Shown here: positions 5,390 to 24,738 of the stretch, piece by piece
Layout: each line of letters begins with the position of its first letter
How positions within the stretch are numbered: position 1 is the stretch's first letter
Source: Chloroflexota bacterium
Lineage (GTDB): Bacteria > Chloroflexota > Anaerolineae > UBA4142
Direction: 5' to 3'
Length of the DNA: 34,298 nt
Assembly: GCA_016865935.1 (NCBI GenBank)
Contig: VGOB01000030.1
Span: 1 to 34,298, forward strand
Translations under genes and position numbers: made by a program
The notes under the pieces: model-generated
Told to the model about the DNA's origin: nothing
Seen by the model: only the letters and a program-made list of their open reading frames with translations
Databases searched by the model: none

Positions 5390-5419
5390 TTGACATTTGG
5401 CTTCGCGCGGGTGTATAGT
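5390..5419 (+). promoter_or_regulatory. sigma70-like promoter (TTGACA, 18-bp spacer, TATAGT)
   Basis: TTGACAtttggcttcgcgcgggtgTATAGT, immediately upstream of the first plus-strand gene of the phage-like module. Confidence 0.4.
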
Positions 5420-6950: not shown

Positions 6951-8579
6951 GTGAGAAAACCAGGAACATCGGATCGGCATCGTCTCGCGTTGGGCTTGGC
7001 TGCGCTTTTGTTTTCCTTAAGCGCGATCCTCGTCGTGCCGTTTCTTGCTTTTGGTCAAGGGACGATTCCAGCGAATGGGGCGTTTAGTGGTGGTCTCACG
7101 GGCTGGACTGTTCTCGGGTCTCAGGTGTGGCGCGGGGACATTGGACGGACCGCTAATGGCGCGGCGTGGTTTTATGGTAACGGCGGCGGTGCTTTGGTCA
7201 GTTCCGCATTTGTTCCGAGTGCGTCAACCGTCTTGACGATGTGGGTCGGTCGCTTAACTGGCTATGCCGCGATGCTGTACCTGCAAGTGTGGGATTACAC
7301 CACGGGGCAGATTCTGTTCGTCGGCAATCCGGTGAGTGCTTCGGGCTGGACTGAGCAGCAGTACGATTTATCCGGGTACGCGGGAAAAGTGATCGCGATT
7401 TCGTTCAACGCCAATTCTGGTAATGACGTGGTTGCGGTGGACGATATTTCGATTTCCAATGCGAGTTCATACACGGCATCGGAGAGCGAGGGAAATTGGT
7501 CGTTTCGCGCGTCGCTCAAGGGCTGGGTCCCGATGATGTCTTTTGCGTTTCAATCGTCGGTCAGTCAAGATGCGAATTCGGGATCGGTGGGCTTTTCCGG
7601 ATCAACCTGGGGCAATGTTTACAGTGTTCCGGTGTTGGTCTCAAGCGCGAATTGGTCGGGTTACTATCGTTGCACATCAACGCAGTATGTGCGGATTCAT
7701 TGGTACGATCAAACCCTGGGGACAAATGCGCTCATCACGCAACCTGCCGCAAATTGTGATGGCACCTGGAAACAGTTTTCCTGGTCAATGGGTCAGTACG
7801 TAGGTAACACGGGTCAATTGATGGGCACGATCTATGATGGCGGGACGAATTACCTGGACGCGCTTTGTCCTAGTTCCGGGTGCGGATCGGGCAACCTGGC
7901 AACGCCTACGCCGATCCCCAGTCCTACGGCAACCGGCGGCGGCGGTGGGGGCTATCCGACGCAATTACCCTATCCGACGCAATTACCTTATCCGACTTTC
8001 CCGCCATTTCCTACGTTCGCCCCATACCCGACTTTCCCGCCTTACCCGACTGTTGATTTCGGATGGAGTACGCCTTACGTGATTACGTTTGGCGGGACGC
8101 CTCAACCCGTGATCGTCACCAACACGGTGCAGATTACCGGTTCGGTCAACGTGCTGAACTGGCCGACGCCGATCTACGGACCGGGGACGCCGATGCCGGT
8201 TTATTATCCGACCAAGGAAATGACGCCCTTTGCAATTCCCACGGGCGCAGGTGGTGGGGGCGGCTTGGGGGTCACAATTGGCGGGGTGGTTGCAACCCAG
8301 CAAACGGGCAACATCTCGGGCGTGATGCCGTTCGCAACCCAGGGCGGTCAAACTTTCGAGACGCCAGGGGCGACGATCCAAGAACGTGTCCTGGGCTTTT
8401 GCTTTCCGGAACAAGTGACCAGGATTTTCGGGGGCGGTGCCGTGCCGGTCTGCTTCAACTTTACGATGTGGGAGGTCACGAAATTTTCGTACCTGGGCGT
8501 CAATCTGCTTGTGCCGCTCGGCGCGATTATGATCGTGTTCTTCTTTGTCTTCCTGGCGCGCCAGGTGCAGCAAAATTAG
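6951..8579 (+). CDS. pIII-like minor coat/adsorption protein: signal peptide, two beta-rich domains, Gly-rich and Pro/Thr/Tyr-rich linkers, C-terminal membrane anchor
   Basis: N-terminal signal/TM LALGLAALLFSLSAILVVPFLAFG and two similar domains (WTVLGSQVW... and WSFRAS...). Linker is PTPIPSPTATGGGGGGYPTQLPYPTQLPYPTFPPFPTFAPYPTFPPYPT, with a later GAGGGGGLG run. C-terminal anchor is LLVPLGAIMIVFFFVFLARQ. GTG start with AGGGG RBS chosen; TTG 6912 is an alternative. Confidence 0.5.
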   Translation: MRKPGTSDRHRLALGLAALLFSLSAILVVPFLAFGQGTIPANGAFSGGLTGWTVLGSQVWRGDIGRTANGAAWFYGNGGGALVSSAFVPSASTVLTMWVGRLTGYAAMLYLQVWDYTTGQILFVGNPVSASGWTEQQYDLSGYAGKVIAISFNANSGNDVVAVDDISISNASSYTASESEGNWSFRASLKGWVPMMSFAFQSSVSQDANSGSVGFSGSTWGNVYSVPVLVSSANWSGYYRCTSTQYVRIHWYDQTLGTNALITQPAANCDGTWKQFSWSMGQYVGNTGQLMGTIYDGGTNYLDALCPSSGCGSGNLATPTPIPSPTATGGGGGGYPTQLPYPTQLPYPTFPPFPTFAPYPTFPPYPTVDFGWSTPYVITFGGTPQPVIVTNTVQITGSVNVLNWPTPIYGPGTPMPVYYPTKEMTPFAIPTGAGGGGGLGVTIGGVVATQQTGNISGVMPFATQGGQTFETPGATIQERVLGFCFPEQVTRIFGGGAVPVCFNFTMWEVTKFSYLGVNLLVPLGAIMIVFFFVFLARQVQQN

Positions 8580-10576: not shown

Positions 10577-11242
10577 ATGTTCGGGGATTTTGTTTCGTCT
10601 TTGCAGTTGTCCGCGTTGAGCGATGCCATTATGGGCGTGTTGTCTATTCCGTTGGTGCCAGCGTTGGGGCTGACTGTGATCGTGTTCTACCTTGTGCCGT
10701 TCGCGTTTCGCCGACTTTATGCTTTGGCTTCGAGTAATCGTCAATCGGATGAAATTCTTCGGGAGTTTGCGGCGGCGCGCGAGGTTGAATCGCGGATTCA
10801 GAGTTTCTTGTTGCGCCATCCTCCCCGTTCGGTCGAGGAACAAGCTGCGGCGGAGCTCGGCATTTCGGTCGAGGAGTTGATCGCGCCCGATCCTTGGGAT
10901 GAGTATAAAGTATTTTCGGCGGACGGTGGTCCTGAGATGGATCCGGTCGAGGCGCGCGAGATTTTGGAGGCGGAAAGACAGGGGGGCGATCCTCGTGGTC
11001 GGGTGGTATGGCTGTATGATGAAACGAGTGATGTGGGAAAGTCCATTCGGCGACAATCTGAGAAAAGGCGAAAACGCGGGGGTGATCAGCGGGTAGCCGA
11101 AGAACTCGGGATGTCGGTGGAGGAGTGTCGCGAGCTTATGGCGGCGGAAGAGTATCTTTACGATGAAACAAGTGGTGCGGCAAAGTCCCTTCGGCGACAA
11201 GCTGAGAAAAGGCGAAAACGCGGGGGCGATTTGCCCTTCTAG
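10577..11242 (+). CDS. coat-like N-terminal TM domain protein, paralog A (internal duplication; C-terminal RRKRGGDLPF tail)
   Basis: N-terminus MFGDFVSSLQLSALSDAIMGVLSIPLVPALG is shared with 11293, 12066, 12952 and 13740. The AEELG(I/M)SVEE...KS(I/L)RRQ(S/A)EKRRKRGGD module occurs twice. GGAG RBS. Confidence 0.6.
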   Translation: MFGDFVSSLQLSALSDAIMGVLSIPLVPALGLTVIVFYLVPFAFRRLYALASSNRQSDEILREFAAAREVESRIQSFLLRHPPRSVEEQAAAELGISVEELIAPDPWDEYKVFSADGGPEMDPVEAREILEAERQGGDPRGRVVWLYDETSDVGKSIRRQSEKRRKRGGDQRVAEELGMSVEECRELMAAEEYLYDETSGAAKSLRRQAEKRRKRGGDLPF

Positions 11243-11292
11243 TATTTTCGTGTCGCGCACGTGCTTGACACGAAATAATTCGGGGAGTTGAA

Positions 11293-12015
11293 ATGTTCAA
11301 TGATTTTGTTTTCTGGCTTGACCTGACGAGATTGGCGGACGCCATCGGCGCGGTATTACAAATTCCGCTCGTCCTGGCACTCGGCGTTAGCGTGTTTGCG
11401 CTGCCGCTCGTGGTTATCGTTTTCCGGCGTCTGTACGATTTGCTGGAGTTGCGTCACGTCATCGCGTTGTCAAAACGTGAAGCGACTCAGCAAGCGCAGT
11501 TTGAAATCGACCTGGCTCAATTTCTGTTGAAACGTCCGGATTTGAGTATCGAGCAGCGGGTAGCTGAAGAACTCGGGATGTCGGTGGGGGAATTGAACGC
11601 GCCTGGCGGGTGGAGTGATGATTCGGTTTATTCGGCGGATGGGGGTCCCGAAATGGATCCAGTTGAGGCGCGCGAGATTTTGGAGGCGGAAAGACAGGAC
11701 GGCGGACAGTACGGTCGTAGCCGCGCTATTTCTCTCGCCGATGGGTCCTATGCCTGTCCGGAATGCCTGAGCGGTCTGGATGAAGAGTACGTGCCCGATG
11801 GCTCGCTTGGCTGTTCTGTGTGCGGATGGCTTGAAATGGACGATGATCCTCAGCCGGTGGTGGGCTATGTGCCAAAGCGCGCCCAAAATCCGTCTGAGTT
11901 CGTGGATTCGCTTTATGATGCGGACGGCAATTTCGCCGCATTCACGCCGACGCAAAAGTCAATTCGACGACAAGCCGATAGAAGGCGAAAACGCGCGGGC
12001 GATTTGCCCTTCTAA
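11293..12015 (+). CDS. coat-like N-terminal TM domain protein, paralog B (zinc-ribbon CPEC...CSVCGW; same C-terminal tail)
   Basis: MFNDFVFWLDLTRLADAIGAVLQIPLVLALG. Shares ADGGPEMDPVEAREILEAERQ and the KSIRRQADRRRKRAGDLPF end with paralog A. Confidence 0.6.
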   Translation: MFNDFVFWLDLTRLADAIGAVLQIPLVLALGVSVFALPLVVIVFRRLYDLLELRHVIALSKREATQQAQFEIDLAQFLLKRPDLSIEQRVAEELGMSVGELNAPGGWSDDSVYSADGGPEMDPVEAREILEAERQDGGQYGRSRAISLADGSYACPECLSGLDEEYVPDGSLGCSVCGWLEMDDDPQPVVGYVPKRAQNPSEFVDSLYDADGNFAAFTPTQKSIRRQADRRRKRAGDLPF

Positions 12016-12065
12016 TATTTTCGTGTCGCGGTCGAGCGGGACACGTAATAATTCAAGGAGATGAA

Positions 12066-12659
12066 ATGTTCAATGAATTTGTTCTCTGGCTTGACTTGGC
12101 GGGTTTGGCTGCCGCGATCTCGGCGGTGTTTGCGATTCCGCTGGTTCAGGCACTTTTCGTAGGGCTGCTCGGCTTTACCATCGTGCTTTGGGGGCTGAAG
12201 ATGATTTCGCGATTGGCGGGGCTGTATTTCGCGTTGCCCGGAGATGTCCACGAGGCGACACCAGGCGCGATCAATGTGCCTGGAATGATGCTCCGCCAGG
12301 ACGATTACTTGAATGTGGACGTTGACGTGGCGGCAACGTTGCTTACAGGGCAACAAGCTCAATGGATGGTCGAGCGTTATGGCCCGGACGTCGATCCTGT
12401 CTTGAGCGAAGAGGGCAGCTGGATGCAAGTGCGCGTTGACCTGGGTTTGAATGCGCCGGAATTGTATTATGGCTTGACTGGGCCCGAAGCAATGGCTTTG
12501 CAGGATTACTCGTATCGTCGCGCGTTTCCTGAGGAGTTCTCGGGTGGGGGGGATGCCGAAATGATCGCCTCGCACAATCAAATGCGCGCGCGCCGTTCCG
12601 CGAACAATCGGGGGCAAAATCAGCACTATGACGATCTCGCCTTCGAGGGTGCGGTCTGA
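12066..12659 (+). CDS. coat-like N-terminal TM domain protein, paralog C (divergent C-terminal domain)
   Basis: MFNEFVLWLDLAGLAAAISAVFAIPLVQALF, with two TM helices. The 50-bp leader is nearly identical to that of paralog B. Confidence 0.55.
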   Translation: MFNEFVLWLDLAGLAAAISAVFAIPLVQALFVGLLGFTIVLWGLKMISRLAGLYFALPGDVHEATPGAINVPGMMLRQDDYLNVDVDVAATLLTGQQAQWMVERYGPDVDPVLSEEGSWMQVRVDLGLNAPELYYGLTGPEAMALQDYSYRRAFPEEFSGGGDAEMIASHNQMRARRSANNRGQNQHYDDLAFEGAV

Positions 12660-13739: not shown

Positions 13740-13904
13740 ATGTGGAGCGATTTCAGCACCGTGTTGACTGAGGCCGCGTTGGGTGACGCCATCGGCGACG
13801 TGCTCGGGATTCCCATCGTCGTGGCAGTTGGTCTGGGCACGATGGCCCTGGGTTTGGTCGTCTTTGCGCTGCGCCGACTCAAACGCCTCGCGCCTCAATC
13901 TTAG
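13740..13904 (+). CDS. major coat protein-like (54 aa: acidic amphipathic N-terminus, hydrophobic core, basic C-terminus)
   Basis: Strong RBS GAAGGGAGGTGA. MWSDFSTVLTEAALGDAIGDVLGIPIVVAVGLGTMALGLVVFALRRLKRLAPQS has the g8p-like architecture and matches the paralog family. A GC-rich hairpin at 13921-13956 follows it. Confidence 0.5.
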   Translation: MWSDFSTVLTEAALGDAIGDVLGIPIVVAVGLGTMALGLVVFALRRLKRLAPQS

Positions 13905-13980: not shown

Positions 13981-14136
13981 ATGCCAACCTTGCCTGATTA
14001 CTGGACGACGATTTCAAGTCAAATGTCGTCCTTTATGAACTGGACTGCCGTTTCGACGCCCACCGCGATCATCGTTGGCGCGGCGGTCGTGTGCGTGATG
14101 CTGGCGATGTTCCTGTCCGTTTTCATGAAGCATTAG
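13981..14136 (+). CDS. small membrane protein (51 aa)
   Basis: GAAGGAG RBS. TM AIIVGAAVVCVMLAMFLSVF. Confidence 0.35.
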   Translation: MPTLPDYWTTISSQMSSFMNWTAVSTPTAIIVGAAVVCVMLAMFLSVFMKH

Positions 14137-14460: not shown

Positions 14461-14650
14461 TGTCGCGCCTCGTTTCGCGCGTGGCGGGACACAATTCAAA
14501 GTATTGGCTCGTGATCCACATTCCGAATCGCTGTGCGGTGCGTTGTTCGGATTGTGGTCGTTATCATCGGGTTGGCGTCGTCATTTCAAAGCGGTACACT
14601 TGTAACCGCTCGCCTGGCGAACGCCGATTTATCCTAATTTGCCTGCGTTG

Positions 14651-14699
14651 TCTCAACCGATTCGGTTGGGACCTGACCCCCGTGTAGTAATACGGGGGT
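14651..14699 (+). promoter_or_regulatory. two perfect hairpins immediately upstream of rep (candidate plus-strand origin/nick site)
   Basis: CAACCGAtTCGGTTG is a palindrome. GACCCCCGTgtagtaatACGGGGGTC has a 9-bp perfect stem and an 8-nt AT-rich loop. Both lie 20-70 bp before the Rep start. Confidence 0.4.
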
Positions 14700-14720
14700 C
14701 GAAAATACGGTAGTACCATT

Positions 14721-15665
14721 ATGCACATAGACTGGATAGGTGTAACCCTTCAAGGCAATAGCCAACATGCTCTTGGGCTTGTGCGCTCGTGGGCTGGGTC
14801 GCTCGAGGAGATGAGCGGCGGAGGTATGGGCTACGATCGAAGTGCCAAGATATGGGACACGGGTCGAGTGTATTGGTCTACTATGCGATCCGATATGGGC
14901 GTTCACGTCCGCTTGCCTTCAAGCGCAATGCACACAAGCAAACAAGACTCAGTGGACCTACTGACGTGGCTTGTGAGGCACAACGGCAATACGACGCGGC
15001 TTGACGTGGCTTGTGATGACTTTGACTATCACTTGCTCGACCTCGCAGAGATTAGCCGCAAGGCGCAAGAGGATGAAGTATGCACGGACGCCCAGGTGAT
15101 TGATGAATGGCACGCGTTGCGGGGCGTAGGGCATACGATCTACTTTGGCTCGCGTTCGAGTGAGCGCCTGTTACGCATTTATGACAAAGCCGCGGAGCAA
15201 GTAAAAAAAGCGGGCGGCAATGCGGCGATGCCTGACGAATTCTGGGTTCGGGTGGAGTTGGAGTTGAAAGGGGATCGGGCAAAAGTCGCGGGGCAAATGA
15301 TCGTTGATCATCGTGAAACGTGGCAGATTCTAGGGGCTGGCTGGATTCGGGACTTTGTAGATTTCAAGGAACCCGAATTGGAGGATATTAACAAGGCGCG
15401 TTGGGAAACTTCTAGATGGTGGCTTGATTTTCTGGACAATGCTGCCAAGTGCAAAATTCCGATCAAGCGTGAGGAACAAACGATAGAACGGATCGTGGCG
15501 TGGGTGGACAAGCAAGTGGCGCCCAGTCTGTTTGTTTTGAGCGCGACGGTGGGACACGATCAGGTATTTGAACGGGTTGGCGCGGCGTCTGCGCGTTTGA
15601 GTGCGCGCCAGGTGCAGTTGATCAATGAGTGGAACACTGAAAACGAGGTTACCGATGTTCAATGA
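14721..15665 (+). CDS. rolling-circle replication initiator, Rep_trans family (phage replication initiation factor, RstA/gpII-like)
   Basis: Motifs HTIYFGSRSSERLLRIYDKAAE and FWVRVELELKGDRAK resemble the conserved (R)xYDK and vRvElel blocks of PF02486. Size 314 aa. Confidence 0.55.
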   Translation: MHIDWIGVTLQGNSQHALGLVRSWAGSLEEMSGGGMGYDRSAKIWDTGRVYWSTMRSDMGVHVRLPSSAMHTSKQDSVDLLTWLVRHNGNTTRLDVACDDFDYHLLDLAEISRKAQEDEVCTDAQVIDEWHALRGVGHTIYFGSRSSERLLRIYDKAAEQVKKAGGNAAMPDEFWVRVELELKGDRAKVAGQMIVDHRETWQILGAGWIRDFVDFKEPELEDINKARWETSRWWLDFLDNAAKCKIPIKREEQTIERIVAWVDKQVAPSLFVLSATVGHDQVFERVGAASARLSARQVQLINEWNTENEVTDVQ

Positions 15666-15801
15666 TCTGCTCAATCAAATCGCATTTCATTCGCCGTACC
15701 TCGCTTGGACGAATGAAGAACGCTGGTACTATTGTTTCCTCTTGAGCGCGTTGATGCTGTGTTTTTGGATCGCGTTTCCGCGCGGCGGCGGCAAGTCGTG
15801 A
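15655..15801 (+). CDS. small protein (48 aa) with an MFND N-terminus like the coat-domain family
   Basis: Overlaps the Rep stop. MFNDLLNQIAF... has a hydrophobic stretch and a GGGKS end. Weak. Confidence 0.25.
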   Translation: MFNDLLNQIAFHSPYLAWTNEERWYYCFLLSALMLCFWIAFPRGGGKS

Positions 15802-15859
15802 CGCCGGCGGGATCGCTTTGACCTGCAAATGTCCCGCATTTTGGGACACCGCGACCGCG

Positions 15860-16126
15860 CGTTGACACGAAAAAACGTTTTTTCCGCGGCGGATGACACG
15901 AAAAGCGACAAGCTTATCAGTAAGGGGCGTACTAATCGCTCCTGCCAGGCGGATGACACGAAAAAAGTCGAATTTTCCCCGCGCGCGTGATTTCCCGTAC
16001 AAAAAAAATCCCTGCCGCTCCGGAGAGCGACAGGGACTTTGTTTGTCCGGATGTTGACACGATTTCCGCGACCGCTGTTTTCGTGTCCTCGACGTGCCGG
16101 ACACGAAAAAAGGTTTCGTGTCACGC
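15860..16126. repeat. cluster of GACACGAAA(A) / TTTCGTGTC motifs (six or more copies, direct and inverted)
   Basis: ttGACACGAAAAAAcg, gcggatGACACGAAAAgcg and gcggatGACACGAAAAAAgtcg are direct copies. TTTTCGTGTCctcgacgtgccgGACACGAAAAAA is an inverted pair, and GGTTTCGTGTCACG also occurs. The motif also forms hairpins in the leaders at 11245-11276 and 12018-12046. Confidence 0.6.
16003..16050. terminator. bidirectional terminator in the convergent intergenic region
   Basis: AAAAAAAA-TCCCTGCCGCtccggagaGCGACAGGGA-CTTTGTTTGT. Confidence 0.45.
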
Positions 16127-16135
16127 TCGACCCTC

Positions 16136-16339
16136 TTATTTGCGTTTCTTCTTGAGGGCTTTTTCGAGCGGGGCGTAGGACGCCCACATCGCTGTGCGCG
16201 CGCGTTGTTGTCGCGCGCGCATCTTGCAGCGGTTGCTGCAATATTTCTTTCGACGCCCACCGCGATCCGATTGCTCGATGGGCTGGCTACACATCCGGCA
16301 CTTGTCCGGACCTGCGAACTTGTATGCCATTGCGATCAC
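16136..16339 (-). CDS. small basic zinc-ribbon protein
   Basis: CRMCSQPI...YCSNRCKMR with KR-rich tails. Confidence 0.4.
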   Translation of the reverse strand: MIAMAYKFAGPDKCRMCSQPIEQSDRGGRRKKYCSNRCKMRARQQRARTAMWASYAPLEKALKKKRK

Positions 16340-16650
16340 CTCCTTTCCTCGATTTTGACTTCTCTGACGATCTGCGCGAACGTGGTTGGATCCACGCGGA
16401 ACGTCAGCACTTTTGGTTGCCAGGTGCGATCAAAGTCAACAGGCGCGGACCAGTCGTTTTTGACGGAAGCTATGTACCACCCCGGGGGGGTTTTGACACG
16501 TCCTCGATGCATCTGCCAAATGCAGTACAAGGCGTGATTGTGCAAATGCAGTTCGTCGAATTCTTCGGCGAGGTTTGCGACGGTCGTGAGTGATAGTCCG
16601 ATTGCTTCGGTTAGCATTGTGAGCAGTTCGTTGTCAATCGTCTTCGTCAT
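16336..16650 (-). CDS. hypothetical protein
   Basis: 104-aa ORF packed tightly with its neighbours (start/stop overlaps). Typical protein-like composition. Confidence 0.4.
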   Translation of the reverse strand: MTKTIDNELLTMLTEAIGLSLTTVANLAEEFDELHLHNHALYCIWQMHRGRVKTPPGWYIASVKNDWSAPVDFDRTWQPKVLTFRVDPTTFAQIVREVKIEERR

Positions 16651-17263
16651 CGCGCATCCCTCGCATTTTCTCGACTTGTCGGCGCGCCATAACCCGCGCG
16701 TGATGCTGCTGGATGGGTATTAGGACTTGAGCGGCGATTTCGTGCGGAATGTCGTCCAGGTCGATCTTGACGTCCCGCAGCGTGATGTTGATGGTGCCAT
16801 AGACGCCATAGGACAAGGGTAAGTGCAAGCGCGTGGTTTCGCCTTCGCATTTTTCGGGCGGTTTGACGCCCAGCAGATCGGCGAACTTCTTTGTAAGCCG
16901 CATAACTGCTTCCACGTTTGCGTTGTACTCGGCGTGGCGGACTTTTGCTTCCGCAAGATCGGCGAGACATTTCGGGAGTAGCCGCCGGTGAATGTCTTTG
17001 ACGATCTGCTCGATGCTCTTGGCGACGCTTACGCCGATCTCGTGTCGTCCTTTCTCATTTCTTTGATTGTACGTGAGAAAGTCTCTCCACATACCGAAAC
17101 CGGCTGAGATTCGAATTCGTCCTCTTTCGTCGTGGACGTAGAGCATCAATTCTGACTTTGGATCGATGATTCTTGCGCTCCAGGATTGTTGTTCGTCGTC
17201 GAACTCCCATCCCATAATCGTGGCGATTTGCTTCGCCACAAAGTGAATGTCAATCTCACCCAT
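16634..17263 (-). CDS. hypothetical protein (209 aa)
   Basis: Long ORF, operon-packed. Confidence 0.45.
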   Translation of the reverse strand: MGEIDIHFVAKQIATIMGWEFDDEQQSWSARIIDPKSELMLYVHDERGRIRISAGFGMWRDFLTYNQRNEKGRHEIGVSVAKSIEQIVKDIHRRLLPKCLADLAEAKVRHAEYNANVEAVMRLTKKFADLLGVKPPEKCEGETTRLHLPLSYGVYGTINITLRDVKIDLDDIPHEIAAQVLIPIQQHHARVMARRQVEKMRGMRDDEDD

Positions 17264-17585
17264 CGGTCCTCCCTTTCCCCGGATTGCACAAGGGGCAATC
17301 CTTTTTGAGACCTCGCCACCGGCGTCCGCCGTTTCCGTCCTGCTGCATATGCAGGTGCGCGACGTGTACTTTTCCGTCGCGCGTGATGATGTACGATAGT
17401 TCTGCGCGTGCGTAGGACTCGTCTGCTCGATGCGTGATGTACTTGTGATCCCGATTCAAGGACGGATGATCCGGATACCAGGATACGCGCATCTCGTAGT
17501 CCTCTCGCTTGGCGCGTCGACGCGCCTCCCGGATTGCTTCAAGACTTGTCATAGTTTTTTCTCCTTTCTCAGAACCAGGACGCAA
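17256..17585 (-). CDS. hypothetical protein (start uncertain)
   Basis: ORF overlaps its neighbours. Cys pair CPLC near the C-terminus. Confidence 0.3.
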   Translation of the reverse strand: MRPGSEKGEKTMTSLEAIREARRRAKREDYEMRVSWYPDHPSLNRDHKYITHRADESYARAELSYIITRDGKVHVAHLHMQQDGNGGRRWRGLKKDCPLCNPGKGRTDG

Positions 17586-18192
17586 ACACAGGTTCGCGTT
17601 GGTTGTCGTTGGCTTCTTGCACGAGCGCGCGCGCCATCTTGAAACTGCTCATATATCCGTGATGCGATCTTCGTCCGCTTGGACTGATCGCGTACTGCAC
17701 CGGCTTGGTGGGATTGCCTTTGTAGCACGCGTCGATCCATTCGCAATAGTCCGGATCGCCGATGAGCGCATTTCGCAAGATGCTGGCGGCGTGGCTGGGT
17801 GTTGCATAGCCCAGGGATTCACAAATCACGTGCGCGACGATGTTGGGCCATCGGCGCATAATTTGTTCACGGGTCATTGTCTCGATCATCACGCGGCGAT
17901 CTTTGTCTTTGATCAGCGGCTTGACGTTGTACTCCAGGCGTCGCGCTTGTCGCCACATTCGGTTGTATCGTTCGTCCATCTGTTTTAGCAGTTGCTTGTT
18001 GCTGTAACAGGTGTTTGTCCACTTGAAACGCTCGATGTCGGCGATTGCGCGGTTCAGTTCGGGCAAGGTCATTGCCTCGATGTCCGGCTCGATGTTTGAG
18101 ATCGTTGCTACGACTGCCGGTTGTTCCTCTGCGTACTCGTCTAGGACGTACCACAGTGTTTCTGCCTCGCCGTGCCAAGTTGTCGCGATCAT
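17569..18192 (-). CDS. hypothetical protein (207 aa)
   Basis: Long ORF with protein-like composition. Confidence 0.45.
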   Translation of the reverse strand: MIATTWHGEAETLWYVLDEYAEEQPAVVATISNIEPDIEAMTLPELNRAIADIERFKWTNTCYSNKQLLKQMDERYNRMWRQARRLEYNVKPLIKDKDRRVMIETMTREQIMRRWPNIVAHVICESLGYATPSHAASILRNALIGDPDYCEWIDACYKGNPTKPVQYAISPSGRRSHHGYMSSFKMARALVQEANDNQREPVFASWF

Positions 18193-18746
18193 TCCTCATC
18201 CCCCCTTCCAATCAAGCGTGGTTGTTGTGTCTTTGATGGGCGCGGGTTTGCATTCACACGCACACTGCCGTAATTTTCCCGAATTTCGTCAATGGTGAAT
18301 TCCCGATGTCCACCGGCGGGAATTCCAGCGAAGTACCACAACTTCTTTTTCGCCGCCCATCGGAATTTTGCGGCTTTGAGTTGTTCGCGGTTCTCTTTCG
18401 TGTTGCCGCCCACCCAAACCCACAAGCCGCAAATCTCGATGTCGAGTCCCTCGATGCCGATGATTTGCTCGATGGCTTGGCGAATTCGCTCGTCAACTGC
18501 GGCGGCGTCTGTGAAGTCTTGCGCCGTTGGTTCGGGTTTGCCTTGCTGACGCGCTTTCTCGCGCATCTCGGCTTGCCGGAACATCGCGGACGCCTGGGCA
18601 TACTCGACGTTGATTTCTTGCATCGCGCGAGTACGCATTTCTTTTTCATCCGACGTGCCCAAGTCCGGATGAAACATTTTACACAACCGGCGATATTCGA
18701 TTTTCACATCTTCGGCGGTCGTGCAATTGTGAAAGTGCTTTAACAC
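18189..18746 (-). CDS. J-domain (DnaJ-like co-chaperone domain) protein
   Basis: EDVKIEYRRLCKMFHPDLG carries the HPD tripeptide in the helix II-III context of J-domains. Confidence 0.55.
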   Translation of the reverse strand: MLKHFHNCTTAEDVKIEYRRLCKMFHPDLGTSDEKEMRTRAMQEINVEYAQASAMFRQAEMREKARQQGKPEPTAQDFTDAAAVDERIRQAIEQIIGIEGLDIEICGLWVWVGGNTKENREQLKAAKFRWAAKKKLWYFAGIPAGGHREFTIDEIRENYGSVRVNANPRPSKTQQPRLIGRGDEE

Positions 18747-18801
18747 TCTGATTCTCCTTTTGGAGCGCCTTGATCATCGCACGATCAAGGTGCATTGGTT
18801 T

Positions 18802-19023
18802 TTAGTCATAACAGAAGTGTTTGATGTCGTTGTGCCAGGTGACGATCAATATTACGCTTTCGGCGCGAATCGAGCAGCACTCGCTCATATACGTTTCATA
18901 CGTGTAAATGTCGTAGTACTCTTTGCCTTTGTCGTCTCGATGGTCGAAGTAGACCACGAACGACTTGCCTGGGTTTCGTTTGGCTGATCGCTTGGCGAGT
19001 GCAATCGCGTTGCGCTTTGTCAT
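18802..19023 (-). CDS. hypothetical protein (74 aa; the longer ORF extension upstream is probably not coding)
   Basis: Start taken at MTKRNAIALAKR. The upstream extension is R/S-rich low-complexity. Confidence 0.3.
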   Translation of the reverse strand: MTKRNAIALAKRSAKRNPGKSFVVYFDHRDDKGKEYYDIYTYETYMSECCSIRAESVILIVTWHNDIKHFCYD

Positions 19024-19060
19024 TGGGCGGTCAAAGTTGTTCACAGTTGTTGAGTTCCTT

Positions 19061-19570
19061 TCATTCCAACCATCCCTCGTGCAATGCTTGTCTTGCGGCA
19101 TCTCGAAGAGCGGCGCGCGCATAGACCACGTTGATCCGAGCTTCTCCCAGCAGTTGCGTGAGGTGATCGGTGATGAGATATTCCGCCTGGCGCGTGCTGC
19201 GCTCGGTGCGGAATTGATTTTTCCATTCTTGGGCTTTGATCGGCGCGTCGTCGTACTCATCCACGCCGATCCCGTTGCCTAGGTTTGCGTTGATCCGCAA
19301 TTCGTTCAAGACGCGTCCGGCGATCACAAGGACCTTACGCCGTGCCTTGCGGTTCTTGCGGTCGCGCGGATCGTGCGACTGATCGAGAATCTCCTCGATG
19401 CGTTCGACGAACGCTTCGGGGATCGCCTCGACGAATCTTGGATCATCGCTGGCAAGCCGGTTGATCTCGCCGTTCTCGTCTTCGAGCTCGGAGAGCATTT
19501 CGACTTGACTCCATTTTCGGGCTTGCCATCGCGCGTAATTGAGCGCACAACGCGCGACGTACACCGGCAA
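19061..19570 (-). CDS. sigma-70 family factor (regions 2 and 4), phage-type; true start upstream and non-ATG or frameshifted
   Basis: Region 2.2-2.4-like EGLIAALRTYDPAKSSLPVYVARCALNYARW and region 4.2-like LGEARINVVYARAALRDAARQAL. Homology continues upstream of the TTG at 19570 to an in-frame stop at 19647-19649, with no ATG. Confidence 0.5.
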   Translation of the reverse strand: MPVYVARCALNYARWQARKWSQVEMLSELEDENGEINRLASDDPRFVEAIPEAFVERIEEILDQSHDPRDRKNRKARRKVLVIAGRVLNELRINANLGNGIGVDEYDDAPIKAQEWKNQFRTERSTRQAEYLITDHLTQLLGEARINVVYARAALRDAARQALHEGWLE

Positions 19571-19608
19571 ACTGCTTTTCGCCGGATCGTATGTCCGGAG
19601 TGCCGCGA

Positions 19609-19752
19609 TCAGCCCTTCGGAAAGGGCTTCTTCCAGCTGAAGGTTTCATCGTCCGAATCGTGTACAAAGAGGTCTTCGCTGTACGTGCGCTCGATGCACC
19701 ACGGAATGTTGGTGCATTTGTAGTCGAACGTTGCGATCCAGGATATTTTCAT
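19609..19752 (-). CDS. small ORF (47 aa) with GGAGGTGA RBS, overlapping the sigma reading frame in the +1 frame
   Basis: MKISWIATFDYKCTNIPWCIERTYSEDLFVHDSDDETFSWKKPFPKG. Its stop lies inside the sigma-homologous frame. Confidence 0.3.
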   Translation of the reverse strand: MKISWIATFDYKCTNIPWCIERTYSEDLFVHDSDDETFSWKKPFPKG

Positions 19753-19758
19753 CGTTTC

Positions 19759-20112
19759 TCACCTCCTTTCGCCCGTGACGTAGAACTCAATCGCTCGTTT
19801 GATAACAGATGCGTGGCACGGCAACGGATCGCACCAACAAACCAACACGATTGTTTTTTCCGCTTTGGCGATTTCAACGAGACGCATCAACTCATCTTTC
19901 ACCGCACTATGCTCACGTTGACACTCGCCCCACAACCACTTGCGATACTTTTCGATCACTTGCGTTCGCGTTCCATCGCGTCCGACTCGAAAAGGATTTC
20001 CCAAAATGCTCCCCTTCCGAATTTGTTCGCATCCCGATTTCATCGGACGCCCCACATACACGATTGAACTCACCCAATCGCGCACCTGCTTGACGTTTCC
20101 TACTTTGATCAT
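19759..20112 (-). CDS. DUF4326 family protein
   Basis: VYVGRP...GNPF...IEKYRKWL...LVCWCDPLPCHASVI matches the DUF4326 pattern common in phages. Confidence 0.55.
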   Translation of the reverse strand: MIKVGNVKQVRDWVSSIVYVGRPMKSGCEQIRKGSILGNPFRVGRDGTRTQVIEKYRKWLWGECQREHSAVKDELMRLVEIAKAEKTIVLVCWCDPLPCHASVIKRAIEFYVTGERR

Positions 20113-20216
20113 TTCGCCAACCCCTTTCGCAAAAAAGTGTATTCGATCTCGAAACCGCTGAGATCGCTTGCGACACACCGCAAGGCGGGCTGAGCATCAA
20201 GCCCGATGCGTTTTTT

Positions 20217-20242
20217 GTGGCGGTTTGTTTACAAACCGCCAC
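20217..20242. repeat. 26-bp perfect palindrome GTGGCGGTTTGTTTACAAACCGCCAC (copy 1) followed by a CGTAGTT motif
   Basis: Second copy at 20624-20650 (GTGGCGGTTTGTGAAACAAACCGCCAC). Both are preceded by GCGTTTTTT. CGTAGTT recurs at ~20232, 20559, 20572 and 20692. Confidence 0.55.
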
Positions 20243-20623
20243 GTAGTTCGCATCGCCAAGCACGAGGCGTTCTGACCCGTAGGGCGGCGCGTTTTTTGCG
20301 CCGTTTTTTAAGGTTAGCCGTTTTTTGGCGGTGCGTTTTAATCGGCGCGGGGTTTGCGCCAAGAAGAAAACGCAAACCTTAAAAAATCAGTAACGCGCTT
20401 TCCGTGCTGGCTTGATGCCAGCCCGTGCACAGAACGATGACAAACCCTCTAACTTGGAAACCGCGCACGTAGCAAATCACGTCTGTGCGGCGTCTCGCCC
20501 GTTCCTTTGGTTTGCGTGCGCCCCTCAGCTCGTTTTTTGTGAGGGCAACATCGGCGCGTAGTTTTGCCGCGTAGTTTGCGGCAATTGCGCCGACAAGCGG
20601 GAATGAATCGGCGTGCGTTTTTT

Positions 20624-20650
20624 GTGGCGGTTTGTGAAACAAACCGCCAC
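20624..20650. repeat. palindrome copy 2 (see 20217-20242)
   Basis: Same arms with a different central trinucleotide. Confidence 0.55.
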
Positions 20651-21366
20651 GCAGTTCGCACGTCCTTAGCCCCGCTTGGTTGCCCGAACGTAGTTCGAGC
20701 AGGAGGCGCACGCAAGGGCGAGTGGGACGCCGCGCGCTTACGTGATTTGCGCTTTTGCGGTTTCTCAAGGTGTCGAACATCAAAAAGTGTAGATCGGACG
20801 CAACCTTGCGGTATGATCGCGAGCGTTAGAATCGCTTTAGTCACGTCCTTACATTTTCCGATGGCACGATGCGCTTTTCGCGCGTAGTGTGCGCGCATTT
20901 TGCATCGGCACATCGGAAAATGCTCGATCAGCGTGACGACGTAGAGACGAAAGGGGGGTATGGGGGGACAATCGAAATGTCCCCCCATCCGTTCGCGTTT
21001 TTCGCGAACGGTTCCCGCGTTCATCTGCAAACAAGCAAACGAGCGTCAGTCTCGTTTGCCTTTCGACTCGGCGACGCGACACGGAAAAAAATCGACATTC
21101 CTCGCCTGATCAGAAAGAACAACACACACACGCATTAAAATTCTTGCGCGGTCGCCGCTTTTCGGCGGGTACCGCGCAAGTCCATAAAGGGGGGGGCGTT
21201 ACGGGGGGGCGCACAGTGGTCGCCGTGCTTTTTGCGGCGCATTTTGCCGCGCACGTCGCGGCGATCCACTGCCCCCCCGTTAGAAGGGGGTGCGTGAATC
21301 GCTTTTCGATGAACGCAGGGGGAAAACTTTCCCCCTATATCTTAAAAAAGAAACAAAAGGAAAGCA

Positions 21367-21609
21367 TCATTCTTTTATTTCTTTTTTCTTCTCCTTCTCC
21401 TTCTCCTTCTCCTTCTCCTTCTCTTTCTTCTTCTTCCGGTAGACGTACATATAGCAAGCCGCATTGCGGATTGCTTTTTTGTGGTACCATATTTCAACGC
21501 GCGCTAACCGGTAGCCCTGTTTTTTCATTTCTGCGTGGGCTTTGAAGAAGTCAAAGGCGGCTTCGTTTCTGATTTTGACGACGCAGGGTAAGATGATTTC
21601 TTTTTTCAT
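21367..21609 (-). CDS. small protein with C-terminal (EK)n tract encoded by a hexanucleotide microsatellite
   Basis: MKKEIILPCVVKIRNEAAFDFFKAHAEMKKQGYRLARVEIWYHKK..., then KKKKEKEKEKEKEKEKKKEIKE. GAGGGAAG RBS. Confidence 0.4.
   Translation of the reverse strand: MKKEIILPCVVKIRNEAAFDFFKAHAEMKKQGYRLARVEIWYHKKAIRNAACYMYVYRKKKKEKEKEKEKEKEKKKEIKE
21385..21437. repeat. (CTCCTT)6 hexanucleotide microsatellite with flanking CTT repeats
   Basis: cttCTCCTTCTCCTTCTCCTTCTCCTTCTCCTTCTCCTTctctttcttcttctt. Confidence 0.7.
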
Positions 21610-21612
21610 TTC

Positions 21613-21942
21613 CTATCTTCCCTCTAACTGTTTCATTGTCTCTTTGAGTTTGGCATATTGAATTGCCAAATTCAAATCGGCGTTAGAGCAAATGAGCGCT
21701 CCGTCCTTGTTGATGTGCCATTGATCTTTGGCAATGGCGGACATTCTGTCGCGCGCTTCGTCCGCTGTGCGGAATGGCGTCACCCTGAGTTTGGTCGTAG
21801 TCCAGCCGCCCCACTCTTCGCCATCAGTCCAGGCAATAACATTGCCGCCTGTCTCGATAACGTAAGTCGTGCGGTCATTCGCGTCCAAAGTGCCAAGAAC
21901 GGGTATTTGTCGTCCGCCCCAGTTGACTGTTTGTTGACTCAT
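21613..21942 (-). CDS. hypothetical protein (109 aa)
   Basis: AGGGGAGGA RBS. Confidence 0.5.
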   Translation of the reverse strand: MSQQTVNWGGRQIPVLGTLDANDRTTYVIETGGNVIAWTDGEEWGGWTTTKLRVTPFRTADEARDRMSAIAKDQWHINKDGALICSNADLNLAIQYAKLKETMKQLEGR

Positions 21943-22280
21943 TATCCTCCCCTTTGCTCGTAGAATCGTCGCTTTTCTTCCGCTTCCTCGTTGAACGGAT
22001 CTTCTTCCACGAGATCACTTGGATCAGGAATGGATAACTCGAACCCCTCTGCCTCTGCGTCTCTGATCGCTTTCTTGCAAATCTCGATCAGTAGTTTGAA
22101 AGCGGCTCGCATCTCGGCAATTTGCTTGTCGTCCAACATTCCTTGCAATGTCGGATTGACCATTGGTTCAAACGTGGTCTTTCGATTCCTGATTACTGCG
22201 CTGATGTTGCACAGCTGGATCACGTCTCGCACGTTCGGATCACTCAGCAGTCCTACGCTGAATGGCGTTTTTGTAGGCAT
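21942..22280 (-). CDS. hypothetical acidic protein (112 aa)
   Basis: ORF with start/stop overlap to its neighbour. Confidence 0.45.
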   Translation of the reverse strand: MPTKTPFSVGLLSDPNVRDVIQLCNISAVIRNRKTTFEPMVNPTLQGMLDDKQIAEMRAAFKLLIEICKKAIRDAEAEGFELSIPDPSDLVEEDPFNEEAEEKRRFYEQRGG

Positions 22281-22295
22281 TTAGTTGCCTCCTTT

Positions 22296-22691
22296 TTAGT
22301 TTGTCGTTGTCAAATAATTTGATGACTGTGGTTGCGTATGTCGTCGTGATCGTGATGGTCGCTTTTTTGCTCTTTCCTCGCGTTCTTTGACTACGCCAAG
22401 CCACTTGATCATCAAACGCAGTTTTTCGTCCTTTGCTTCATTTGACCATTCCTCTCCCCACCACCTTATGCGCGCGTTGATTGTGTCTTTGTACTGCTGA
22501 TCTAATCGCCGGTATATCTTGAGCAGTTCCCAGAATCCTTCTGAAATGCCCTCGTAGCGTCCATCGGGACACAGAGAAAAAGTAATTGGGGCCGGATTCC
22601 ATCGATCAAGCATCACGCAGAAATCAACGGCGTCCATTACTCCTTCATCGTCTTGGGGATTCAGTGCGAGATAGACCTGGTTTTTTCTCAT
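22296..22691 (-). CDS. hypothetical protein (start uncertain; 22790 is an alternative)
   Basis: Trp-rich protein (IRWWGEEW). Confidence 0.35.
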   Translation of the reverse strand: MRKNQVYLALNPQDDEGVMDAVDFCVMLDRWNPAPITFSLCPDGRYEGISEGFWELLKIYRRLDQQYKDTINARIRWWGEEWSNEAKDEKLRLMIKWLGVVKEREERAKKRPSRSRRHTQPQSSNYLTTTN

Positions 22692-22839
22692 CTGAATACC
22701 AATTCCAGTATCACCGGCACACCTAACGCGCAACCGATGATCGCGAAAATTCCGAACGGACCGTTTTTGATGCACGTCGGCACGAGCCAATAGATGCCCC
22801 AGGGGACGAGCCCTACCGATAGTAGCACAAGCCCTGGAA

Positions 22840-23298
22840 TTATGTCGTCCATAAGGACCTGAAGGACCTGATCGCGCGCTGGATTGCGATTATGACGCCC
22901 ACTGCTAACCAGGGCACGGTTAGCAGGGTCAATAGAAACGGCACCAGCGGTATTTGTTCCTCTTTCTGTTTCGGCACCACTTTTTCTTCCTCCACTTCTA
23001 CTTCCAGTTCGGATAGCGAAATAAGGATCGAATCAATCTCGTCGGCGCAAATCGCTAGTTCGCCTTTTTCCCCCAGGTTGATGACGTGCTCGATGGCGGT
23101 CGCGGCGGCTTCTTGCCAGGCAAGACTCAGATCGCGCACATCATCGCACCAGATTTTCAGTTCGCCGGCGGCCGTGATCGGTTTGCTTTCTTTGTATGGC
23201 GATACCTTCGCCGATACCCCAAATGTGAATTTCACCTGTCCTTGAAAGGTCGGATCGGGTTTGTTGTCGAATTTTTTGTCGAAAATGTTCGTGCTCAT
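22840..23298 (-). CDS. hypothetical protein with C-terminal TM helix
   Basis: AAGGAG RBS. C-terminus LVPFLLTLLTVPWLAVGVIIAI. Confidence 0.5.
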   Translation of the reverse strand: MSTNIFDKKFDNKPDPTFQGQVKFTFGVSAKVSPYKESKPITAAGELKIWCDDVRDLSLAWQEAAATAIEHVINLGEKGELAICADEIDSILISLSELEVEVEEEKVVPKQKEEQIPLVPFLLTLLTVPWLAVGVIIAIQRAIRSFRSLWTT

Positions 23299-23484
23299 TC
23301 TTTCTTTCTCCTTTTCGGATTTTGGATTTCTTTTATTCTTCGTCCTCGCCCCAGGATCGAACCGGCGAGGTCATTGCTCGATGTCTGATCCAGTTTCGGA
23401 TCGTGTCGTAGACGATGAAGATGCTGACTACACAACCGATCAGAGTGACCAGTACTTCGGGCAAATGGTCGAGCGCGTTGACAA

Positions 23485-23679
23485 TCATTCTGCTTTTTCC
23501 TCCTCCTCTTTTGGTTTTGGAACCGGTTTCAGCACCAGGGAAACAGTGTGGTAAAACGTGTACACGGTCCCGTCAATTTCGACCACACCCTGGATTGCCG
23601 CCGTGCCGAAAACAATCTTGTGTTGCCTGTGAAACGTGGGATGCACGATGATTTTTTCGTCCCTTACATCACCCTTCAT
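23485..23679 (-). CDS. hypothetical small protein
   Basis: 64-aa ORF. Confidence 0.3.
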   Translation of the reverse strand: MKGDVRDEKIIVHPTFHRQHKIVFGTAAIQGVVEIDGTVYTFYHTVSLVLKPVPKPKEEEEKAE

Positions 23680-23894
23680 TCGCTTACCTCGCTTTTGCAG
23701 TGGAGTTCAATGTATTCGACAATCGCCCCGCATAGTTGTTTGCTAGGCGATACGTCGCCCATTGGAAACTGGAATGGCGGATAGCCGCTTTTTTCGAGAC
23801 ACCAAAAAGACGGTCGACCTGGGAGGGTCGCTGTGTATCGTCGTGCTACCCATCCGCGCGTGATTTGGATTTCGTTGTTCGGGAGATGTTCCAT
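23676..23894 (-). CDS. hypothetical small protein
   Basis: 72-aa ORF. Confidence 0.3.
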   Translation of the reverse strand: MEHLPNNEIQITRGWVARRYTATLPGRPSFWCLEKSGYPPFQFPMGDVSPSKQLCGAIVEYIELHCKSEVSE

Positions 23895-24110
23895 TTACCC
23901 TTCTTTTTTCCTCGTGGTCGGTAGTATTTGCAGTGGTGCATCGCGCCGGATTTTGTCCAAACGCAGGGGTAGCGCGTTTTTTTGATGTAACTTGATTTGT
24001 GTCCGCAAATTTGCATTCCGCTGACTGAGACTGACGTATATGGCGCGATCGGCGAGGGAATGAATGTTTGCTCGGGGTAGCGTCCTGCTAAATGGATGCA
24101 GTTGTTTGTG

Positions 24111-24449
24111 TTATTTGATGTCATTCGGGATCAATTCTTTCTCGATGGCAATGTACTTGCTGCGGAGATTGCTCATCGCGTCAAGAGTGCTGACGATTGC
24201 AACATCAAACCACCACCGGCGCAAGAACGTCCAACGGGCTGGAATGAGTTCGAGTACGTCGAATCGCCATTTGGGAAATTGGTACTCGCTTTCATAGCAG
24301 AGTGGGCAGGGGCGAAAAATTTTTTTCCGCACTTCGGTTAGCTCGATAGAAAAATAGTTGGGTGTGACCAACCGACACCAGGGGCGGATTTTGTGATACA
24401 ACCGTCCCTGGTATCTAACCAGGACGAATTTATCGTTTTGCGGTTTCAT
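24111..24449 (-). CDS. hypothetical protein (Cys pair CPLC)
   Basis: ORF starting at the internal Met MKPQNDKF. Confidence 0.35.
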   Translation of the reverse strand: MKPQNDKFVLVRYQGRLYHKIRPWCRLVTPNYFSIELTEVRKKIFRPCPLCYESEYQFPKWRFDVLELIPARWTFLRRWWFDVAIVSTLDAMSNLRSKYIAIEKELIPNDIK

Positions 24450-24738
24450 CGGGTTTTTCCTTTCTGCCCAAGAAGAGAATGAGATAGCACAGGGCATAGA
24501 GCATTGCTGCGCTATCTGCGATTTGAAACGTCATTTCGACCGGAAAGGTAGGCGCACTGCCTTGACTGACCTGGGTCAGTTCGTCGTCCACGTCTCGCGG
24601 CTCGACCGGCGGGATTGCTTTTACCTTGGCAAAGATCGGACCGTAAGGCGTGGGGATTGGTGTAAATTCGATCATAATCCCCGCGCGCAAAAGTTCGGCG
24701 AGGGCATCGGAATGGGTTTTGATCATTGGCATGTCCAC
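24430..24738 (-). CDS. hypothetical protein with C-terminal TM
   Basis: 102-aa ORF. Confidence 0.4.
   Translation of the reverse strand: MDMPMIKTHSDALAELLRAGIMIEFTPIPTPYGPIFAKVKAIPPVEPRDVDDELTQVSQGSAPTFPVEMTFQIADSAAMLYALCYLILFLGRKEKPDETAKR

Follow-up and report, generated by a model that had tools for sequence, protein, structure and literature searches.

In contig VGOB01000030.1 of an uncultured Chloroflexota bacterium (34,298 bp, analyzed over its whole length and hereafter called the window), a 10-base word, GACACGAAAA, is clustered between the 3′ ends of two convergent gene blocks of a putative prophage, and it recurs letter for letter in three related elements from other samples (L162, L137, and L009). 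The element itself, judged indirectly from its genes, appears to be an integrated inovirus-like prophage of ~23 kb in an uncultured Chloroflexi bacterium represented by a metagenome-assembled genome (MAG). Its plus-strand block carries morphogenesis genes, among them three paralogs (A, B, and C), and a rolling-circle initiator gene; the last gene of its minus-strand block, next to the junction, encodes a 64-aa zinc-ribbon protein. The interpretation that we favor, although only tentatively, is that the words form an array of duplex-DNA binding sites, of the operator or roadblock type, for a protein encoded by the element and probably for the zinc-ribbon protein. The sites are real, clustered, and conserved in sequence among related elements; we infer that the zinc-ribbon protein would be the binder, that DNA rather than RNA would be its target, and that the outcome would be regulatory. 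This family of cis-elements belongs to a virus lineage about which little is known. In kind, the word is a repeated protein-recognition sequence of an ordinary sort; what is unusual is where it is placed and which protein is its candidate binder.

Enrichment of the motif, for which the original prediction had proposed a genome-wide check, came out clearly across the window. The 9-mer GACACGAAA of the 10-base word has 10 exact matches on the two strands, against an expectation of 0.55 (SD 0.77, maximum 3) from 100 dinucleotide shuffles, and it is the top over-represented 9-mer of the entire window. None of the 100 shuffles reached 10, which rules out a chance origin. Six of the exact copies lie within 259 bp (15864–16122), at 15864+, 15895+, 15955+, 16079−, 16100+, and 16114−; together with one degenerate copy they agree with the earlier claim that the 9-mer and its complement occur at least six times in 270 bp. 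That two copies are embedded in longer direct repeats, that one pair forms a hairpin, and that a bidirectional terminator lies in the middle of the cluster had also been claimed, and all of these factual statements held. The word copies flank the strong terminator on either side, in the following layout.

15849–15885, plus strand: first site, CCGCGACCGC-N5-GACACGAAAAAACGTTTTTT, with the word at 15864–15873 and a conserved left flank.
15888–15904, plus strand: direct repeat GGCGGATGACACGAAAA (17 nt), copy 1, with the site at 15895–15904.
15948–15964, plus strand: direct repeat GGCGGATGACACGAAAA, copy 2, with the site at 15955–15964, 60 nt past copy 1.
16005–16040, unstranded: bidirectional intrinsic terminator, dividing the cluster, with a 16-bp stem preceded by A8 and followed by a T-rich tail.
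16056–16064, plus strand: degenerate seventh site, GACACGATT; the same variant occurs upstream of the zinc-ribbon gene in L169.
16066–16109, unstranded: tail-to-tail inverted repeat CCGCGACCGC-TG-TTTTCGTGTCC-N10-GGACACGAAAA, with the centers of its 9-nt half-sites 21 bp apart.
16100–16122, unstranded: head-to-head pair GACACGAAAAAAGGTTTCGTGTC, whose left site is shared with the inverted repeat at 16078–16109.

The hairpin part of the tail-to-tail repeat, TTTTCGTGTCC-N10-GGACACGAAAA, spans 16078–16109. The first site is ~89% identical over 35 nt to L009 4786–4819, and the head-to-head arrangement of GACACGAAAAAAGGTTTCGTGTC is also found at L009 4802–4826. Two small open reading frames (ORFs) within the cluster, 15829–15990 and 15893–16057, are not conserved in L162 and were treated as spurious. 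Similar annotated DNA was sought among 50,697 phage records and 72,556 plasmid records, with no match. Rfam likewise gave no match at the gathering score, its only two matches having E values of 0.5–1, and a known RNA family was rejected on this ground.

Beyond the junction, the inverted repeat precedes two of the paralog genes, as the original prediction had stated.

11245–11276, unstranded: inverted repeat TTTTCGTGTC-N12-GACACGAAAT, between the stop of paralog A (11242) and the start of paralog B (11293).
12018–12049, unstranded: inverted repeat TTTTCGTGTC-N12-GACACGTAAT, between the stop of paralog B (12015) and the start of paralog C (12066).

Both repeats begin 2–3 nt past the stop codon of the preceding gene and end ~16 nt ahead of the next start, and the copy at 12018–12049 has one mismatch, GACACGTAA. 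The A/B and B/C junctions arose by a tandem duplication and are homologous DNA, so the two repeats count as one event. Between them, the spacer differs at 6 of 12 positions and the arms at 1 of 20.

The same pattern of fixed arms and drifting spacers holds more widely. When the six inverted repeats were aligned in transcript sense, 8 of the 10 stem pairs were invariant, the other two varied solely by pair breakage, and no compensatory change was observed in the stems. The spacers vary in length from 11 to 13 nt and have a loose GTCGAG/CACGTG core in common; a search of 345 kb of related loci with a covariance model of the six hairpins brought up no additional copies, whether diverged or compensated. 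Invariant arms, diverging spacers, and zero compensatory changes therefore point to sequence-specific recognition over a structure-only hairpin. Moreover, the unpaired direct copies at 15864, 15895, and 15955 cannot form local hairpins, and several unpaired direct repeats are the signature of a word read as sequence. A short conserved word, in direct and inverted copies and far above chance, is also what an operator or binding-site array looks like. The word hairpins were rejected as intrinsic terminators, having a T run before the stem and an A run after it on both strands; only 16005–16040 fits.

We then considered how far the word is conserved. The locus L002, from a different sample, is identical to the window. 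Across the window, L162, L137, and L009, the 9-mer is invariant in 20 exact copies, usually followed by A as the tenth base and with GC-rich flanks, which answers the proposed check for conservation in related inovirus-like elements. In L162, whose Walker-A ATPase is 60–62% identical to that of the window, GACACGAAA is found at 7941+, 7968−, and 7991−, and the variant GACACGGAAA at 8011+. These sites occupy the same convergent junction, between a bidirectional terminator (7864–7907, homologous to that of the window) and the 3′ end of the L162 zinc-ribbon gene, the last of its minus block. In L009 (Rep_trans 46% identical), copies at 4802+, 4839−, and 4861+ have the same CCGCGACCGC flank and include both head-to-head and tail-to-tail arrangements. 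This cluster lies inside a long non-coding region homologous to window 20113–21366, where the window has just one variant site.

21078–21087, plus strand: lone variant site GACACGGAAA in the long non-coding region, at the place of the full cluster in L009.

The L009 cluster is a 67-nt segment that the window lacks at the homologous position, and a very similar segment is present at the window junction. The region at 20113–21366 is itself 1.25 kb of hairpin-rich non-coding DNA with G-runs, upstream of a DUF4326 operon and conserved in L006 and L009; it had no Rfam match, and a segment like its AAGGTTAG...AACCTTAA was seen by eye in L003.

A scan of 185,579 species genomes (596 Gb) for the pattern TTTTCGTGTC-N10-14-GACACGAAAA returned 20 matches, in many phyla and with a maximum of two per genome. 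L137, from a Chloroflexi MAG, was picked by the hairpin pattern alone, and it encodes homologs of four proteins of the window, namely the 95-aa protein that opens the plus block, a coat-like protein, the Walker-A protein, and the zinc-ribbon protein. Its hairpin lies just upstream of an HUH-type Rep gene, 15–80 nt before the Rep start. In IMG/VR, searches with the hairpin pattern gave no matches and then five unrelated ones, and no close relatives were found by Rep protein or by ATPase profile. The motif is absent from L163, L164, L166, and L167, which have similar morphogenesis genes; the junctions of L163, L164, and L166 hold terminators only.

To identify a candidate binder, gene content was compared between the motif-bearing loci (the window, L162, L137, and L009) and the motif-free loci (L163, L164, L166, and L167). 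The zinc-ribbon protein was the only one to track the motif in more than one further locus.

16136–16330, minus strand: 64-aa zinc-ribbon protein, last gene of the minus module and candidate binder, with CxxC-x16-CxxxC, YCSNRCKMRA, and a long basic helix.

Homologs of this protein, in which the segment QSG..GR.K.YCSNRCKMRA is near-invariant, are encoded in L162 and L137, and none was found in the four motif-free loci, even though the ATPases of the latter (44–53% identical) are closer to that of the window than is the ATPase of L137 (30%). The neighboring 104-aa gene (16336–16650) is common to L162 only. Helix-turn-helix (HTH) proteins of the element were rejected as binders, their homologs being equally present in motif-free elements. 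One reading in the original prediction was a set of sites for a regulator that also controls the paralog genes. This is the reading favored by our evidence, namely the invariant word, the diverging spacers, the lack of compensatory change, and the unpaired direct copies, although the protein that tracks the motif is the zinc-ribbon protein and none of the HTH proteins does. In L169, which encodes a zinc-ribbon protein 58% identical to that of the window, a GACACGG ... AAATCGTGTC pair lies immediately upstream of the zinc-ribbon gene.

The zinc-ribbon module is rare, with 42 representatives in an exhaustive search of 1.8 billion proteins, and a word-indexed search with the protein gave a self-match only. 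Single modules, tandem arrays, and fusions to HTH domains (P0154) are all found, and the module matches zinc-ribbon segments of PHROG HNH-endonuclease families (E about 1e-3). These fusions, arrays, and matches are weakly consistent with a nucleic-acid-binding function. Four otherwise unannotated proteins (P0145, P0146, P0152, and P0159) carry 3 to ~11 tandem copies of a C..C...RRYCSD.CR.RA module, resembling poly-zinc-finger proteins. As a separate observation, an exact 20-nt repeat, TTTCGACGCCCACCGCGATC, is shared between the coat-like gene (14051–14070, plus strand) and the zinc-ribbon gene (16248–16267, minus strand). Since the two genes lie on opposite strands, their mRNAs would be complementary over 20 nt; the repeat is not conserved in L162 or L137.

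The geometry of the sites suggests how such a protein might act. In the tail-to-tail pairs TTTCGTGTC-N11-13-GACACGAAA, the half-site centers are 20–22 bp apart, or about two helical turns, a spacing that would suit a dimer, while the junction cluster, with at least seven sites in mixed orientation, could be a platform for a larger complex. Bound protein would then serve as an operator or roadblock complex inside a long plus-strand operon, predicted to run from a promoter near 5390–5419 to the terminator at 16005–16040. Occupied sites in the leaders of paralogs B and C would throttle the morphogenesis and Rep genes farther along the operon; the complex at the junction would reinforce the bidirectional terminator between the convergent blocks, and it may feed back on the operon of the zinc-ribbon gene. 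A bolder proposal, which we regard as unlikely, is that the ~64-aa treble-clef-like zinc-ribbon family (YCSNRCKMRA), previously undescribed, is a sequence-specific master regulator in a Chloroflexota filamentous-type virus lineage. The protein would read GACACGAAAA in operons and around the terminator, gating both virion-gene expression and convergent read-through. If true, such a regulatory logic would be one that has not been described in inoviruses.

Several observations weigh against a DNA operator array bound by the zinc-ribbon protein. No sigma-70-like promoter is found at the junction (a scan of 15500–16500 found none, TTGACA being present in three sites with no −10 element after it), and a convergent 3′ junction is not where an operator would be expected. 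The direct copies, spaced 31, 60, and 101 nt from start to start, are only loosely helical. In transcript sense, GTCGAG is common to the loops of the window hairpins W2 and W3 and of L137, and loosely to that of L009, which hints at strand-specific (RNA) reading. As for the protein, its best Pfam match was DUF2116 at E = 0.005, below the cut-off, and its AlphaFold2 model (pLDDT 80.6) had no significant match in the PDB, the best Foldseek E-value being 0.6. The co-occurrence comprises only three positive and four negative loci, of which L137 was ascertained via the motif itself, and the adjacency of gene and sites in the window and in L162 would lead to their co-inheritance anyway. Finally, L009 has the motif with no zinc-ribbon gene in its visible 9.3 kb, and L170 and L171, with zinc-ribbon proteins 42–47% identical, show no cluster in 2–3 kb.

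Recognition could instead take place on RNA, a reading to which we give a low probability. The inverted repeats would be mRNA hairpins and the GACACGAAAA words single-stranded sites for an RNA-binding protein, with targets in the leaders of paralogs B and C, in the Rep leader of L137, and in the 3′ untranslated regions before the junction terminator. The candidate binder would again be the zinc-ribbon protein, with its arginine-rich helix, and the effect would be on translation, mRNA stability, or terminator read-through. Besides the shared loop sequence, this reading draws on the location of all copies within transcribed regions and on the position of the hairpins, which end just before the ribosome-binding sites of B and C and lie shortly before Rep in L137. 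The four unpaired exact copies of the junction (15864, 15895, 15955, and 16114) are, moreover, all sense-oriented, and in the window and L162 the sites lie between the zinc-ribbon stop codon and the terminator. However, the stems show no compensatory change, the loops are long (10–13 nt), the hairpins are of moderate stability (−8 to −11.5 kcal/mol), and Rfam gave zero matches. The agreement in orientation comes from about four independent cases (p about 0.1), and head-to-head and tail-to-tail layouts are equally natural for DNA sites.

The array that we favor presupposes a binder encoded by the element, and a host motif is an improbable alternative. The word would be the operator of a conserved Anaerolineae/Chloroflexi transcription factor, or a host palindrome like the repetitive extragenic palindromic (REP) sequences, acquired by prophages. 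A letter-perfect word across elements whose proteins are just 30–60% identical would suit a conserved host factor. In addition, one Anaerolineae MAG (Zod_Metabat.1307) has the exact TTTTCGTGTCC...GGACACGAAAA repeat in two ordinary chromosomal intergenic regions (L144 1695–1727 and L152 4491–4523), one of them just upstream of a xanthine-dehydrogenase-like operon, and one exact copy of the word lies outside the element in the window, at 2228. This last copy, the only one in ~10 kb of host flank, is probably due to chance. REP and bacterial interspersed mosaic elements are present in tens to hundreds of host copies. The represented genomes, the host MAG not being among those scanned, have at most two exact hairpins each, and the few matches from the species-genome scan, spread over many phyla, do not make an abundant REP family in any of them. 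Other loci, 889 kb in all, contain 25 copies of the word; 7 of these 25 copies are in L009 and L162, related to the window, and clustering is confined to those two.

A role in replication or packaging has to be weighed together with the Rep gene and its upstream DNA.

14721–15665, plus strand: Rep_trans rolling-circle initiator (E = 6e-40), final large gene of the plus module.
14676–14699, plus strand: hairpin ACCCCCG-TGTAGTAATA-CGGGGGT, 22 nt upstream of the Rep_trans start, a candidate plus-strand origin.

The word sites are not tied to a Rep family. In L003 and L006, whose Rep_trans proteins are 76–78% identical, only a terminator is found downstream of rep and the cluster is absent; L006 and L007 have no motif copies anywhere. 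The hairpin in L137 adjoins an unrelated HUH-type Rep, whereas the window and L009 have Rep_trans. On account of this absence near the closest Rep relatives and the presence beside an unrelated Rep, the cluster was rejected as a Rep-binding site or double-strand origin. The word hairpins were also rejected as the Rep nick site: their loops vary and their stems are invariant, and the pattern expected of a nick site is found instead at 14676–14699. There, L004, L008/L009, L032, and L167 keep the AGTAATA loop and show covariation in the stem (CCGCCG/CGGCGG in L008 and L009, and CTCCCG/CGGGAG in L167). The presence of this separate conserved hairpin upstream of Rep makes the cluster an unlikely nick site. 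With its conserved loop and covarying stem, the hairpin resembles a rolling-circle nick site and is the better candidate for the plus origin; it lies within a 260-nt non-coding stretch (14461–14720), itself a better candidate than the cluster for an intergenic region in the Ff sense.

These results also weaken the suggestion in the original prediction that the cluster is the intergenic region of the phage and holds a minus-strand origin or packaging signal. We consider it decidedly improbable that the word hairpins act on the displaced or packaged strand as a single-stranded DNA (ssDNA) signal of a filamentous phage, whether for packaging, as a minus-strand (lagging-strand) origin, or both. 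The element does have a rolling-circle Rep_trans gene and an inovirus-like morphogenesis block, and the hairpin accompanies morphogenesis genes in L137 despite another Rep family, which fits a packaging signal or a minus-strand origin recognized by the host. When folding as ssDNA was checked, as had been proposed, the 296-nt region out-folded its shuffles on both strands (z = −3.7 and −4.7), but much of this signal is due to the terminator stem, and the hairpins themselves, at −8 to −11.5 kcal/mol with DNA parameters, are only moderately stable. A packaging signal is expected to be a single, extended, orientation-specific hairpin, and the cluster differs on each count: each genome has three hairpin loci, of which two fall within the morphogenesis operon; W3 has the opposite orientation to W1 and W2, where one orientation would be expected on the packaged strand; and the unpaired direct copies have no role in a hairpin. 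Furthermore, the four motif-free loci have the same morphogenesis genes, the stems lack the covariation of the Rep-upstream hairpin, and the stretch at 14461–14720 is available for origin functions.

Very unlikely, finally, is a DNA-handling site of an episomal form, either for multimer resolution (res/cer-like) or for partition (centromere-like): such sites are mixed-orientation arrays of short repeats bound by a small protein encoded alongside, and half-sites of variable spacing and orientation do adjoin a small basic protein gene here within ~260 bp, with the 67-nt segment of L009 and the similar one at the window junction implying rearrangement at or near the sites. However, searches of the element turned up no serine recombinase, ParA-like ATPase, or ParB-like protein, a different repeat family (TCACGGAAA) belongs to the region of the tyrosine integrase, and the copies in the morphogenesis operon are hard to fit.

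The gene content of the element is consistent with an inovirus-like prophage in its Rep_trans gene, Walker-A ATPase, and many small membrane proteins, together with G2P-type Rep genes in relatives. No Pfam or PHROG match to Zot/pI was obtained. A near-consensus promoter (5390–5419) stands ahead of the plus-strand block, which opens with the following gene.

5738–6025, plus strand: 95-aa protein, first of the plus block, without a family match.

The block also encodes a 542-aa protein with a signal-like N terminus, Gly/Pro-rich linkers, and a C-terminal anchor, a 282-aa Walker-A protein (GGGKTS; a P-loop morphogenesis ATPase), the three paralogs, and ~10 small membrane proteins. Relatives of the Walker-A protein lie in similar blocks that terminate with Rep_trans or G2P-type Rep genes. 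The paralogs (A, 10577–11242; B, 11293–12015; C, 12066–12659) have an N-terminal membrane segment (MF[GN][DE]F...) in common with a 54-aa ORF at 13740–13904, while a 48-aa ORF overlapping the end of rep (15655–15801) shares just the MFND start. Paralogs A and B contain repeated AEELGMSVEE segments, and A has a weak Sigma70_r3 match.

The minus-strand block (16136–27737) is mostly unannotated and includes a DnaJ-domain protein, DUF4326, several HTH proteins, and a LexA-like winged helix; a tyrosine integrase comes after it. Around the integrase region, at 27750–27800 and 29298–29464, a second repeat family, (A)TCACGGAAA, is present in seven exact copies. One inverted repeat of this family, with a 9-nt spacer, lies between the divergent LexA-like repressor and integrase genes, and the remaining copies fall within a pair of 97-nt tandem units located upstream of an XRE-type gene. 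Its core, CACG(G)AAA, resembles the GACACGAAAA word, and the two families are spatially separate. Downstream of the integrase, at ~29040–29090, a look-alike of a tRNA 3′ part, GGTCGCGGGTTCAAATCCCGTCTTCCGCTC, may be an attachment-site remnant; ARAGORN called no tRNA within the window, and a tRNA fragment adjoins the Rep gene of L003. The element is flanked by Cas3-WYL and other host-like genes. On the host side, a 1,079-aa fusion of WYL/WCX, Cas3 HD, and helicase domains and a DUF4062-GAF protein (30363–33602 and 2461–3444) may be of interest for defense. A CRISPR-like array of ~12 repeats with a period of ~67 nt was seen in L163 (1–800), a few kilobases from the related prophage in a Chloroflexi MAG.

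To our knowledge, filamentous-type viruses of Chloroflexota are only now being recognized, and nothing is known of their cis-acting signals. The motif offers a concrete, conserved handle on them, consisting of one 10-nt word and one 64-aa candidate protein, and it could reveal how virion genes are controlled and how two convergent gene blocks are insulated from each other. Separating a probable origin hairpin from the repeat cluster also aids the annotation of related prophages. Should the words be merely an ordinary operator array, the gain would be limited to annotation.

Among known systems, the intergenic region of Ff phages (M13/f1) contains a terminator, a packaging-signal hairpin, and minus-strand origin hairpins. 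The cluster resembles it as a non-coding stretch past the end of an operon with a terminator and hairpins; unlike it, the cluster has short 10-bp invariant stems, several loci in both orientations, and unpaired copies, and it is missing in sister elements. Iteron or "bind" repeats of rolling-circle replicons, such as the RepB direct repeats of pMV158, are 10–11 nt long and lie near Rep. Here, too, short repeats are clustered in non-coding DNA beside a rolling-circle Rep gene, but the word is independent of the Rep family, occurring with Rep_trans in the window and L009 and with HUH in L137. Com of phage Mu, a zinc-finger protein of ~62 aa, is a translational activator and binds mom mRNA, and lambda N/boxB provides a second comparison at the RNA level. 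The zinc-ribbon protein is likewise a small, basic, zinc-binding phage protein with a predicted target by a hairpin just upstream of the ribosome-binding site. Its sites, in contrast to that of Com, are many and include 3′ untranslated regions and non-coding DNA, and the likeness is one of description.

The IME1 elements of Dehalococcoides are 21–28 kb long, encode a pI-like ATPase, small membrane proteins, and a tyrosine integrase, and have been proposed to be filamentous or budding viruses; the paper describing them does not mention repeats, intergenic regions, or zinc-binding proteins (bioRxiv 10.64898/2026.09.15.751708). By the gene content described, the element studied here resembles them in outline, as an integrated Chloroflexota element of the same general kind, and differs in having Rep_trans where IME1s have a primase-helicase and a serine resolvase (bioRxiv 10.64898/2026.09.15.751708).

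The Ogr protein of P2, with P4 Delta and 186 B, is a ~70-aa phage protein with four zinc-binding cysteines (CX2CX22CX4C), and TGT-N12-ACA dyads of the Ogr type are found centered near −55 of the late promoters of several morphogenesis-gene operons (PMC3931495). The cysteine pattern here differs (CX2CX16CX3C), no homology was detectable by family or fold searches, and the sites, 16–33 nt from start codons and at a convergent 3′ junction, are too close for a −55 position. Although the defining features of that family are thus absent, P2 Ogr with its dyads appears to be the closest known analogy: in both cases a small four-cysteine protein is paired with a long-spacer dyad, which here is TGT-N14-ACA within TTTCGTGTC-N12-GACACGAAA and is predicted to be bound.

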